Positions 8,596-11,780 of a stretch of DNA of 64,000 nucleotides are shown piece by piece (within the stretch, counting starts at the first letter, position 1; every line of letters begins with the position of its first letter). A model generated the notes under the pieces. That model did not search any database and had not been told where the DNA came from. It worked only from the letters and a program-made list of their open reading frames with translations. The DNA is from a virus. The stretch spans positions 64,001 to 128,000 of IMG/VR virus record IMGVR_UViG_3300030329_005426; one strand, given 5' to 3'. A program made the position numbers and the translations under genes.

Positions 8596-8882
8596 ATTGC
8601 TCTTCCCTTTCGCGAACCATCGGGATCTCGAGATTCGTCAACACATAATATTTGTTTAACCAAAGGGGGTGGGTTCATATCAGCCCAGTTAGCAATTGCA
8701 AATGCTTTTAACCCCTCAACATTCTCATCAACGTATTCAAAGCAGCTCGCCATTGTGGCAAACCGTAATGGTTGTCCGTTGGCCGTTTCAACAGAAATTG
8801 CATCGTTTCCTTGATACGTATAGTCTGCAAAGAACATCGTGATGAGAATGAAGATGGTTTTCATAGTTACTTTCCTCCCCAA
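8592..8882 (-). CDS. Hypothetical exported protein
   Basis: Hydrophobic N-terminus, two Cys; likely start at MKTIF. Confidence 0.5.
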   Translation of the reverse strand: MGRKVTMKTIFILITMFFADYTYQGNDAISVETANGQPLRFATMASCFEYVDENVEGLKAFAIANWADMNPPPLVKQILCVDESRDPDGSRKGRAI

Positions 8883-9943
8883 TAGTAGTCAGCCGCGTAG
8901 CTGTATGGAGTAAAGGCAACATTCTTAAATGGGACTACTTTCGCAGCCCAAGCCTTCTGACTAGCCAGAACCTTCTTGAACCAAGGATTCTTTGCAGACT
9001 CCTCTTTGAACATCTGGTCAATAGTCTTCAGCTCAGCAACGAGGATATCAGCAGGCGTCTTCATTACCTTAACACCATGCTCTTTTACCATTCGCTTCAG
9101 TGCTTCGCCATTCTTTGCTTGGATGTCAGTCAGCCAATATAGATACGACTCATATGCAGCGGAACGAATAGACGTCTGTTGCTGTTTAGTAAGAGATCGC
9201 CAAACCTTACCGTTAATTAAAAGATCACCAGTATTGCTATGCTCATGCAAGCTATTCAGGTAGTAATATTTCCACATAGTAGGGAAGCCAAGTCTTTCAT
9301 CTTCAAGACCACCCACAAACTCTGCGCAGTTAATAACACCCTTCTGAGCAGCTGCTAGAATTTCACCTCCGGGCATTCCAATAGTTTGCATACCCATTCG
9401 AGCATACAGTTCTACATTAATACCTGTTTGTCGGCATTTAAAATTCTTTAAATCTGCCAGGTTTTTAATAGGCCGTTTGAACCAACCGAGTGGCTGGTTT
9501 TGAGTTGGCATTGCGGGAAACGGAACGACATCGAGCTTCAATACATCTTTATAAAAGGTTCGATATAGTTCCAGGCCTCCGCCATGGAACATCCAGCCTA
9601 GGAAGTCAATTCCGTCCATGCCATATGGACCTCCTAGCGGACTATTGAATAGACCAAGAGTTTTATCCTTGCCTACCCAATAATAACTTTGCGTCCATGC
9701 TGCATCAACAGCGCCAGATGACGTTGCATCAAGCACTTGAAATGCTGGAACTAAAGCACCTGATGGATATACCTTCATATTGACTTTACCGTCAGTAAGA
9801 GTTGATATCCGCTTTGACATGAATTCCATCTGCTCATTAAATGTTGATACAGATGGGAAACTGCTTGCTACTTTAAAAGTCTCGGCTTTAACATTTGTTG
9901 TAGCCATAAAAAAGATCGCGCAAAGCGCCACGAAAAATTTCAT
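8867..9943 (-). CDS. dctP: TRAP transporter substrate-binding protein (TakP/FcbT1-like subfamily)
   Basis: Signal peptide; GALVPAFQVLDA.S.GAVD, YYWVGK, GWFKRPI...DLK..K.R, EFVG...D..LGF. Confidence 0.9.
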   Translation of the reverse strand: MKFFVALCAIFFMATTNVKAETFKVASSFPSVSTFNEQMEFMSKRISTLTDGKVNMKVYPSGALVPAFQVLDATSSGAVDAAWTQSYYWVGKDKTLGLFNSPLGGPYGMDGIDFLGWMFHGGGLELYRTFYKDVLKLDVVPFPAMPTQNQPLGWFKRPIKNLADLKNFKCRQTGINVELYARMGMQTIGMPGGEILAAAQKGVINCAEFVGGLEDERLGFPTMWKYYYLNSLHEHSNTGDLLINGKVWRSLTKQQQTSIRSAAYESYLYWLTDIQAKNGEALKRMVKEHGVKVMKTPADILVAELKTIDQMFKEESAKNPWFKKVLASQKAWAAKVVPFKNVAFTPYSYAADYYWGGK

Positions 9944-9957
9944 CTTTTAACCTCACT

Positions 9958-11340
9958 TCAATTTTTATTTGGTTGTATGGATTTCAGGAAATCTATCTCC
10001 TGTGTATTATATATGACGTCTTTATTATCTTGTTTAAGATAATTAGGGAGCCACGTCGCTGCGCCCGGAACTATGAATAATATAACTACTGCTAGGACCT
10101 GTATCCACATGAATGGGAACATAGCTTTAAAAATCATACCTAAATCCCATTCAGGAACAACCTGCTTCAAATAATAGGATGTTAATGCTACAGGTGGTGT
10201 AAGATAAGCGGTCTGTATAACTATACCTAATGCGGCTCCAAACCATATCAAATCAACTCCTGTAGACATTAACACTGGCATGAAGATTGGCAAGAATACT
10301 AATACTACAACAGGCCATTCAAAAGGCCATCCAAGCAGATGACATAATACCAAAATTGACCCTACAATTGCCCAACCGGGAATTGGTAATCCCTGTAAGG
10401 CAGATGTAATAAGTGTATCTCCTCCCAACCCTGCAAAAATAGCTCCAAAGATTGTAGAGCTAATAGCCAGTAACATAACAACCGCAGATGTGTTAGCTGT
10501 CTTCAATAACGCATCTTGCAAATTATTATAGTTTATTTTACCATGGATCGCTGCTAATGTCAACGCCCCAAATGCACCAAATGCCCCAGCTTCTGTTGAT
10601 GTCGCCAAACCAAATAACATCGATCCAAGAACAGCACTGATAAGAAAGGCAAGAGGTAAGACATCTATTAATACTCTGCCTATTAAACGCCATTCAAATG
10701 GTATATACTCCGGTGCAGGTGCTAATGTAGGGTTGTGCCATACCTTTAATAAGCAGTAGCCTATATACATTGCTGCTATCATTAGGCCTGGAATTAAGCT
10801 TGCTGCATATAGATCTATGATGTTAACATTCATCGTCGGAGCCATGACGATTAAAGGTATAGCTGGTGGAATCATAATAAGTGAGCCACCACCTGCAATT
10901 ACTCCAGCTGATAGCTTAGGATCATATCCGAGCCTCATCATACTAGGAGCAGCCATAATACCTAGCAAGGTTACGGCGGCACCTACAACACCTGTAGCAA
11001 GGCTAACCAGCACAGATACTATAATAACAACTATATAAAGGTTGCCAGGCACGCGAGTAAACAAATTCTTTAGGCTATCAAATAAGCCTTCAACAAGCCC
11101 AGCGCGCTCACATACATAGCCCATAAAAATAAACATCGGAATACTCATCAAGATTTCATCTGATAAGCCGCCCAACAAATTAAAATAGGCTAAATTGAAT
11201 GCTGGTAATGGTCCTAGCCCTATTATTCCAAAAACAAGTGCTAAGAAAATAAGTGTAAAGCTAACCGGAACGCCAACAAAAATACCAGCGATCATGGTCA
11301 ATAGCATTACAAGGGCTAGCCATTCCATTGGCGTATACAC
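9958..11340 (-). CDS. dctM: TRAP transporter large permease
   Basis: About 12 TMs; SIPMFIFMG...ERAG, ATGVVGA, TSTEAGAFGA, QTAYLTPP. Confidence 0.93.
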   Translation of the reverse strand: MYTPMEWLALVMLLTMIAGIFVGVPVSFTLIFLALVFGIIGLGPLPAFNLAYFNLLGGLSDEILMSIPMFIFMGYVCERAGLVEGLFDSLKNLFTRVPGNLYIVVIIVSVLVSLATGVVGAAVTLLGIMAAPSMMRLGYDPKLSAGVIAGGGSLIMIPPAIPLIVMAPTMNVNIIDLYAASLIPGLMIAAMYIGYCLLKVWHNPTLAPAPEYIPFEWRLIGRVLIDVLPLAFLISAVLGSMLFGLATSTEAGAFGAFGALTLAAIHGKINYNNLQDALLKTANTSAVVMLLAISSTIFGAIFAGLGGDTLITSALQGLPIPGWAIVGSILVLCHLLGWPFEWPVVVLVFLPIFMPVLMSTGVDLIWFGAALGIVIQTAYLTPPVALTSYYLKQVVPEWDLGMIFKAMFPFMWIQVLAVVILFIVPGAATWLPNYLKQDNKDVIYNTQEIDFLKSIQPNKN

Positions 11341-11780
11341 TTTTTCAATTCAATCAAACCCTGATATAATAACATAACCAAACCTAGAGTTATGCCGATT
11401 TTCATCGGCCATATTATTAACTGAGCCATCGTTGCACTACTTCGCTCATCGATAATAACACTGCGAAATGTATCGAAGAAGCTAATATATGCTAGCAATA
11501 AGAACGATGGAAAAAATAACAATACGTATGCTATAGCATCGATTTTAGCTTTAGTTCCTGTCGATAATTTATTCCAGTATAGATCGGTGCGTATATGAGA
11601 GCCGGTAGATAATGCATAACTACATCCCCATATGATTAGTATTGTATATAATTGGGGTGCGACATCTACGGCAAAGTCAAAGCGTAAATCAAAGAAATAT
11701 CGCCCTAGTACGTTTGTTACAATCAACAACACGATAATCAATGTAAACCATGAATATATCTTAGCTAACCAATCGCTCAT
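11316..11780 (-). CDS. dctQ: TRAP transporter small permease
   Basis: Four TMs; V.GRYFF, SYAL..GSHIRTD, IWPMK; overlaps dctM. Confidence 0.88.
   Translation of the reverse strand: MSDWLAKIYSWFTLIIVLLIVTNVLGRYFFDLRFDFAVDVAPQLYTILIIWGCSYALSTGSHIRTDLYWNKLSTGTKAKIDAIAYVLLFFPSFLLLAYISFFDTFRSVIIDERSSATMAQLIIWPMKIGITLGLVMLLYQGLIELKKCIRQWNG

Follow-up and report, generated by a model that had tools for sequence, protein, structure and literature searches.

The TRAP cassette

The window analysed here is a stretch of 64,000 nucleotides of viral DNA, bases 64001-128000 of the 154,113-bp IMG/VR virus record IMGVR_UViG_3300030329_005426. Its minus strand encodes a cassette of three genes, dctQ, dctM and dctP, predicted to specify a tripartite ATP-independent periplasmic (TRAP) transporter, a type of system that imports organic acids and is driven by ion gradients. 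The small membrane subunit DctQ (154 amino acids, positions 11316-11780) matches Pfam model PF04290 over profile positions 1-130 of 132, with an E-value of 2.9e-17 and 63 bits. The large permease subunit DctM (460 amino acids, 9958-11340) matches PF06808 over positions 2-412 of 413 (E 2.7e-62, 211 bits). The periplasmic solute-binding subunit DctP (358 amino acids, 8867-9943), of the TakP type, matches PF03480 with an E-value of 8.9e-35, and also matches the NCBIfam TRAP_S1 model NF037995, at 74.5 bits against a cut-off of 50. The length given for DctM follows from a GTG start; the ATG preferred by gene callers, at about 11328, yields 456 amino acids.

DctM aligns end to end with the solved TRAP M domains 9pym, 7qha/8b01 and 7qe5 and shows about 12 hydrophobic segments by hydropathy; in TRAP systems of this type DctM has 12 transmembrane (TM) segments and DctQ has four. 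Its score to TIGR00786, 222 bits, falls under the subfamily cut-off of 268. Simple hydropathy analysis of DctQ finds three strong hydrophobic segments plus a weaker one at about residues 40-60. Residues 1-20 of DctP form a Sec signal peptide, MKFFVALCAIFFMATTNVKA, followed by ETF, with the cleavage site between VKA and E; Sec signal peptides are predicted in all 30 of 30 DctP proteins of the viral clade described below. The genes are tightly packed: 20 nt are shared by dctQ and the radical-SAM gene upstream of it, dctQ and dctM also overlap, and a gap of 14 nt separates dctM from dctP, which is preceded by a GAGG Shine-Dalgarno sequence. A preliminary description of this DNA, made from its letters alone, had claimed three intact, closely packed TRAP subunits; three co-oriented minus-strand open reading frames (ORFs) with full-length profile matches bear this out. 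By every feature that sequence can reveal, the cassette has the properties of a DctP-type TRAP transporter (TC 2.A.56).

The same record encodes gp23, terminase gp17, gp41, UvsX, gp43 (a family-B DNA polymerase), UvsW, RegA and gp62, a gene content by which we assign it to a T4-like phage. Its assembly across the cassette is reproduced elsewhere. A DctP identical to that of the window was found on 21 contigs, 12 of them 50-200 kb in length. Eight contigs, from different samples and assemblers and including Tara Oceans scaffolds and Logan assemblies, were aligned to window positions 5800-15600; all are gapless and colinear with it at 99.75-100% identity. Five of the eight cross the junction between the radical-SAM gene and dctQ, five run from dctP to gp33, and six cross at least one cassette junction, while the two shortest stop in the cupin gene.

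Occurrence on other viral contigs

A pattern scan of IMG/VR identified 23 further viral contigs with a DctM 65-73% identical to the window copy. A search for complete triplets was thus successful: 19 of these IMG/VR contigs carry the whole cassette, in the order Q-M-P, while in the other four, which break off at a contig end, only M-P or P is present. DctQ and DctM are present together with DctP in every uncut phage locus. Identity to the window copy across the phage loci is 76-86% for DctP and 58-71% for DctQ, the latter in the 19 other loci that have it. One protein, 86% identical to DctP, is present on 92 contigs.

The position of the cassette varies. It follows gp41, UvsX and gp43 in locus L010, and follows gp23 in L012 and L020; UvsW lies downstream in L020, L022 and L024. 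In nine loci (L013-L016, L018, L019, L021, L023 and L025) the cassette is found near the terminase gene for gp17. A gp23 gene occurs on the same contig in three of the five largest records tested, one of them 244 kb. Judged by these flanking genes, the cassette is a mobile cargo unit that occupies at least four slots in the genomes of T4-like phages. We considered a fixed operon of the cassette and its neighbours and rejected it: the cargo genes next to the cassette in the window (radical SAM, KdsA, cupin and a 90-residue gene) stand beside it in none of the 23 other loci. The deepest-branching relatives, at 62-73% identity, occur among dense small ORFs that could not be annotated, together with CSD, ClpP, DnaJ and radical-SAM genes, and this context is phage-like.

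Phylogeny and cellular relatives

A maximum-likelihood tree was built from 128 DctP sequences, cellular copies among them. The 42 high-identity DctP proteins form one clade, the phage clade, with SH-aLRT support of 100, a long stem of 0.55 and identities of 62-86% among its members, nested in a family dominated by metagenome-assembled genomes (MAGs) of Burkholderiales, Rokubacteria and Methylomirabilota. Viral context was checked for part of the metagenomic members of the clade, and every member that could be checked was viral or phage-like. The clade is well separated in searches also. Against 5.8 billion proteins, DctP finds 30 clusters at 62-100% identity, after which identity drops to 55% or less. 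In a set of 185,579 prokaryotic species, each represented by one genome, the best match is 55%, and against a library of representatives of 50% clusters it is 45%, with no closer cellular relative.

The cellular sisters are COG4663-type TRAP systems of Burkholderiales, Rokubacteria and Methylomirabilota MAGs. They are 47-55% identical to the phage proteins for DctP, 45-50% for DctM and 31-43% for DctQ, and their DctP shares with the phage protein the positions C206, A207, E208, Q150, R171 and E234. Cellular DctP proteins are 370-390 amino acids long, compared with about 358 in phage. Gene order differs also: among the 65 cellular loci in which it was scored (cellular loci being numbered L028-L105), 59 have P-Q-M, whereas all phage loci have Q-M-P. 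Five cellular loci do have the order Q-M-P, and two of these, L094 and L099, fall in the same unresolved tree node as the phage clade. The tree, the identities and the gene orders fit a capture that happened once, long ago, after which the cassette diversified and was shuffled among phages. The closest cellular homologs point to no donor or host, because they are soil and groundwater Burkholderiales and Rokubacteria at no more than 55% identity.

Selection

The ratio of nonsynonymous to synonymous substitution (dN/dS) was calculated by the Nei-Gojobori method on codon alignments, taking medians over phage pairs with unsaturated dS. The median is 0.106 for dctP, 0.114 for dctM and 0.103 for dctQ, and ratios for closely related pairs are 0.05-0.11. 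The preliminary description had named loss of purifying selection as a result that would count against it; no such loss was found, with medians of about 0.10-0.11 in all three genes. Between the window copy and all others, synonymous sites are saturated (proportion of synonymous differences, pS, 0.74-0.85), and DctP is still 76-86% identical. DctP is more conserved than neighbouring core genes, whose products are 45-72% identical, DNA polymerase being at 48% and gp17 at 57%. Purifying selection on the phage copies is strong for each of the three genes. Intact, selected in this manner and with phage genes on both sides, the cassette is a phage auxiliary metabolic gene (AMG) set.

Fold and binding pocket of DctP

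The PDB sequences closest to DctP are 7ug8 (E 4.7e-49) and TakP, 2hzk/2hzl (E 1.3e-48); further matches are 4yzz/4yic, 4pet, 5cm6 and the calcium-lactate binder 2zzv. Of these, TakP, 7ug8, 4pet, 5cm6 and 2zzv bind keto or hydroxy acids in a cation-dependent way. Entry 7ug8 is a receptor from Synechococcus CC9311, labelled as a ketoacid-binding protein, with bound alpha-ketovalerate and calcium; a literature search on 7UG8 found no relevant paper. TakP forms a helix-swapped homodimer by way of its C-terminal helix; an AlphaFold2 model of DctP (pLDDT 93.6) includes C-terminal helices at 320-343 and 347-355. Foldseek aligns the model to the closed form of TakP, 2hzl, with TM scores of 0.85/0.91, an rmsd of 2.2 A and about 32% identity, and its fold matches are the same set as the sequence matches.

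In TakP, the ligand carboxylate makes a salt bridge to Arg177 and a hydrogen bond to Tyr100, and the cation is held by Gln156, Glu214, Glu240 and the carbonyl of Trp215 (PMC1839085). The HMMER alignment pairs these TakP residues with phage residues as Y100/Y88, Q156/Q150, R177/R171, E214/E208, W215 (backbone)/F209 and E240/E234. All six positions are invariant in 17 of 17 viral-clade sequences, except that position 209 is Phe in 16 and Tyr in one. Of 58 aligned sequences, 57 have Arg at the R171 position, as do all 17 members of the viral clade, while the equivalents of Q150, E208, E234 and Y88 are invariant in the cellular sisters too. The name TakP-type, given in the preliminary description, is therefore apt, since the closest solved proteins by both sequence and fold are TakP, 7ug8 and 4yzz and the six TakP positions are kept. 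From these positions we commit, as the predicted class, to a ligand whose head is a carboxylate carrying a 2-oxo or 2-hydroxy group, with a cation as the bridge.

The remainder of the pocket is different. The hydrophobic pocket of TakP, to which it owes its preference for 2-oxo acids that are short and aliphatic, was taken as F40, I47, V97, Y99, T153, A212, P243 and V245. Phage DctP lacks most of this lining and keeps only F29, Y87 and T147; from TakP to phage the changes are V97 to Q85, P243 to N237, V245 to G239, A212 to C206 and I47 to F35. Q85 and N237 do not vary within the phage clade; the cellular sisters have V/I and S/V/I/T there, respectively. These polar substitutions hint at a polar tail on the ligand. 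As aligned, then, phage DctP is TakP-like at the carboxylate and cation end, and the same ligand cannot be claimed for it. The preliminary description was right that the ligand cannot be named from sequence, given a pocket lining that differs both from TakP and from the cellular sisters.

The cargo island and its boundaries

The cassette lies in a nine-gene cargo island of 6.8 kb (8248-14994, minus strand), annotated by Pfam and NCBIfam matches, that extends from a tmRNA gene to the gene for gp33. The downstream boundary is the T4 backbone block gp33-gp59-gp32 (6477-8248, minus strand). It consists of the genes for gp33 (8030-8248), which matches phrog_254 (E 7.8e-21) and, on an identical gene in L106-L111, PF16805; gp59 (7464-8033); and gp32 (6477-7403). 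The last two are identified by Pfam, as PF08993 and PF08804 match the gp59/gp32 pair. The gp32 of this record is about 53-54% identical to gp32 of cyanomyophages and of the OM43 phage Melnitz. The upstream boundary (15062-15498, minus strand) is a permuted tmRNA of alphaproteobacterial type, found by ARAGORN and by Rfam models RF01849 (110 bits) and RF04321 (116 bits), with the tag ANDNFASEEFALAA. Pfam, PHROGs, ARAGORN and Rfam matches thus agree with the flanks as first described, gp33/gp59/gp32 on one side and tmRNA on the other.

The tmRNA is 74% identical over 138 nt to the SsrA of Melnitz and occupies the same backbone slot in both phages. In Melnitz (MZ577097), gp33, gp59 and gp32 come almost directly after the tmRNA, and for that reason the segment 8248-14994 is interpreted as a cargo insertion in a conserved backbone slot. 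The authors of the Melnitz report argue for a host switch from its alpha-type ssrA (PMC9004378). An alpha-type tmRNA does not fix the host of the present phage, because Melnitz, a phage of OM43, carries a similar one.

In order of transcription the island encodes a cell-wall hydrolase, an FeS-assembly protein, KdsA, a B12-type radical-SAM protein, DctQ, DctM, DctP, an ORF of 90 residues and a cupin. The radical-SAM, KdsA and FeS-assembly genes occupy 11761-14479 on the minus strand. The radical-SAM protein is B12-binding and methyltransferase-like, and its best match is the PhpK family, far under the cut-off; KdsA scores 342 bits against an equivalog cut-off of 242; the FeS-assembly protein is of the SufT/DUF59 type. 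The small ORF that follows dctP (8592-8882, minus strand; 90-96 residues) may be translationally coupled to dctP, since a GGAGG sequence lies within the last part of dctP and an ATG comes a few bases after the dctP stop codon. It has no family match and is not beside the cassette in other phage lineages.

Other genes of the genome

A second transport module, outside the window, lies between regA/gp62 and hsp20/pyrB at G000:C1:142352-146485 (L027:6353-10486). Its genes are for a porin, which matches PF00267 weakly; a TRAP binding protein of the TAXI family, which scores 123 bits with TIGR02122 (cut-off 84); a permease of the TRAP_fused type, short at 459 amino acids, with 330 bits to TIGR02123; and a 339-residue paralog of a virus-specific family that is Asn-synthetase/QueC-like. 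Homologs at 55-60% identity occur near dctQMP in L013, L015, L016 and L023.

The Asn-synthetase/QueC-like paralogs number four in the genome, one in the window at 19345-20391 (minus strand) and three at record positions 38192-39199, 129508-130713 and 142352-143371 (G000). The assignment to QueC-like enzymes comes from weak PHROGs and ESM Atlas leads; the ESM Atlas neighbours are clusters named for an asparagine synthetase domain and QueC-like clusters, 93-100% viral. Searches of this family against Pfam and NCBIfam gave no match, and the PDB gave only two, at chance level (E 0.03-0.3). Locus L016 has five copies in tandem upstream of dctQ. The preliminary description also mentioned several 2-oxoglutarate oxygenases in the window. 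PF13640 does find four in the genome, of which only two lie inside the window, so that the mention is borne out in part; the link it drew from uptake to these enzymes is speculative.

Two further ORFs of the window were considered. An ORF of 173 residues (17497-18018, minus strand) covers roughly one half of a Na/Pi symporter, with matches to PF02690 and, at 52 bits where the cut-off is 50, to NF037997, and may represent a half-size or fragmentary phosphate-transporter gene. An ORF of 852 residues (52262-54820, minus strand) was examined as a candidate DNA polymerase and rejected, as it has instead an N-terminal cytidylyltransferase domain: its first approximately 190 residues are 44-53% identical to cyanophage cytidylyltransferases, and the remainder matches only hypothetical proteins of Sinorhizobium phages.

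Proposed function

We consider it likely that the cassette, as an AMG set of marine T4-like phages, encodes a functional phage-borne TRAP importer of DctP/TakP type. The results above establish that the genes are intact and belong to the TRAP families, that DctP has an export signal and the conserved ligand positions, that the cassette is under selection and recurs in phages, and that the phage copies form a single clade. For expression, assembly in the membrane, coupling to Na+, the identity of the ligand and the benefit to the phage, we infer the following course. The three genes would be transcribed together with the surrounding genes of the early/replication region. The Sec system of the host would export DctP and its signal peptide of 20 residues would be removed, while DctQ and DctM insert in the inner membrane. 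DctP would then capture a small alpha-keto or alpha-hydroxy monocarboxylate, with Arg171 holding the carboxylate and Tyr88 contributing a hydrogen bond. The cation that bridges to the 2-oxo or 2-hydroxy group of the ligand would sit on Gln150, Glu208, Glu234 and the main chain at residue 209. DctP would pass its ligand to DctQM, for inward movement with the Na+ gradient and without ATP. The infected cell would thereby gain extra, or new, high-affinity uptake of an organic acid, as a source of energy, carbon or a precursor during the latent period.

Several points weigh against this reading. Making membrane proteins at a late stage of lytic infection may bring little benefit. A scan for consensus promoters and terminators gave 29 sigma-70-like promoter sites where 29.4 were expected, no signal above chance. 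The T4 late motif TATAAATA is absent from the island and occurs 5 times in the window, against 7.5 expected. With no promoter signal above chance, the timing of expression is deduced from gene position only. The lining of the pocket is unlike that of TakP and of the cellular sisters, with Q85 for V/I and N237 for S/V/I/T/P, and with the further differences of F209 for W and F/Y29 for W. Specificity of the pyruvate kind cannot be assumed, because the lining departs in this way, and the ligand may be something other than a simple hydrophobic 2-oxo acid.

The pocket is also the point of departure for a different account, to which we give a small but appreciable probability. Here the transporter works, and its substrate is an acid with a polar tail that serves as a specific precursor or co-substrate for phage chemistry rather than as a general fuel. 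Candidate substrates would be hydroxypyruvate, glycerate, glyoxylate or glycolate, 2-oxoglutarate, or a keto-sugar acid, and the chemistry might be that of the 2-oxoglutarate/Fe(II) oxygenases, the Asn-synthetase/QueC-like PP-loop enzymes, or the KdsA pathway. Invariant and clade-specific Q85 and N237, at positions hydrophobic in TakP and in the cellular sisters, are what such a substrate would lead one to expect, and the genome holds four PF13640 oxygenases and as many Asn-synthetase/QueC-like paralogs. The QueC-like family adjoins the TRAP cassette in 13 of the 23 related loci, and one copy adjoins the TAXI-TRAP genes here; the island that holds the cassette also encodes KdsA and a radical-SAM enzyme. 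The PP-loop family is multi-copy, however, with a chance of about 40%, by our estimate, that at least one copy falls within 10 kb. Radical SAM, KdsA and cupin genes are absent from all 23 loci, which speaks against a fixed pathway. Proteins that bind a distal carboxylate generally do so through Arg or Lys rather than Gln or Asn. TakP itself binds 2-oxoglutarate poorly (PMC1839085).

In its more specific form, this account describes an anciently captured phage TRAP lineage whose pocket was retuned, through Q85 and N237, for a polar keto or hydroxy acid that feeds phage-specific chemistry, with the PP-loop enzymes, the oxygenases and the synthesis of Kdo-type sugar acids as candidates, and is not a fuel, a proposal that we regard as possible and rather doubtful. 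If it is true, a retuned TRAP system alongside the porin and TAXI-TRAP module would mean that phages install whole envelope-spanning routes of import.

It is very unlikely that the proteins are made for a non-nutritional end, such as metabolite sensing, ion and membrane energetics, or superinfection exclusion. In general, some solute-binding proteins have a signalling role as well, and phages frequently put host proteins to new uses, considerations that bear on this cassette by analogy and not as direct evidence. All three subunits are kept in every uncut locus and the carboxylate and cation positions are invariant, and a non-nutritional role is disfavoured because the pattern retained is what transport needs, and more than a sensor would need. 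There is as little probability that the cassette is a passenger, either a recent capture of host DNA or a set of decaying genes with no role in infection. That the cassette lies in a hyperplastic island, where the other cargo genes change from phage to phage, would suit a passenger; dN/dS of about 0.1 for all three genes, copies that are all intact, proteins conserved despite saturated synonymous sites, and a monophyletic phage clade with a long stem and cellular identity never above 55% do not. An assembly chimera, or cellular contamination of a viral contig, is excluded for practical purposes and was looked for at the junctions without being found: the record is metagenome-assembled, TRAP genes are typically cellular and PHROGs lacks families for DctM and DctQ, but the identical DctP on 21 contigs, the eight gapless colinear contigs at 99.75-100% identity, six of them across at least one junction, GC content of 0.37-0.42 over the cassette against about 0.40 for the window, and the same cassette in other T4-like phages that encode gp23 all speak against it.

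Comparison with known systems

A complete phage TRAP importer appears not to have been described so far. Among GenBank phages, blastn with window positions 8000-14500 gave no match, and tblastn with DctM and DctP gave identities of 29% at most, in records that are short and unannotated or evidently cellular. In PHROGs v4 there is no family for either DctM or DctQ, and the only match of DctP, a weak one, is to a family of unknown function. Full-text literature searches found no report of phage TRAP transporters, and TRAP is unmentioned in the pelagimyophage paper (PMC7029224) and in the Melnitz paper (PMC9004378).

The cassette belongs to a phage-only clade that is conserved across many abundant ocean phages and shifts between cargo slots of their genomes. 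If the transporter is functional, infected cells would import a dissolved organic acid that uninfected cells may handle otherwise or not at all, which would bear on the viral reshaping of carbon flow in the sea.

Among the closest known systems is TakPQM of Rhodobacter sphaeroides, which transports alpha-keto acids. It has the same three subunits and the same DctP fold as the phage system, but is encoded by cells, whereas the phage system is encoded by lytic-type phages. A counterpart among phage genes is pstS of cyanophages, which encodes a periplasmic binding protein of marine T4-like phages and boosts uptake of a scarce nutrient during infection. To our knowledge, phage uptake genes described so far are single parts of this kind, plugging into transporters of the host. 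The product of pstS acts singly and needs the host PstCAB, whereas the phage cassette supplies a binding protein and both membrane subunits. The pstS system uses ATP, while the phage TRAP transporter is predicted to be driven by an ion gradient, and as a self-sufficient set it would be independent of the transporter parts of its host.

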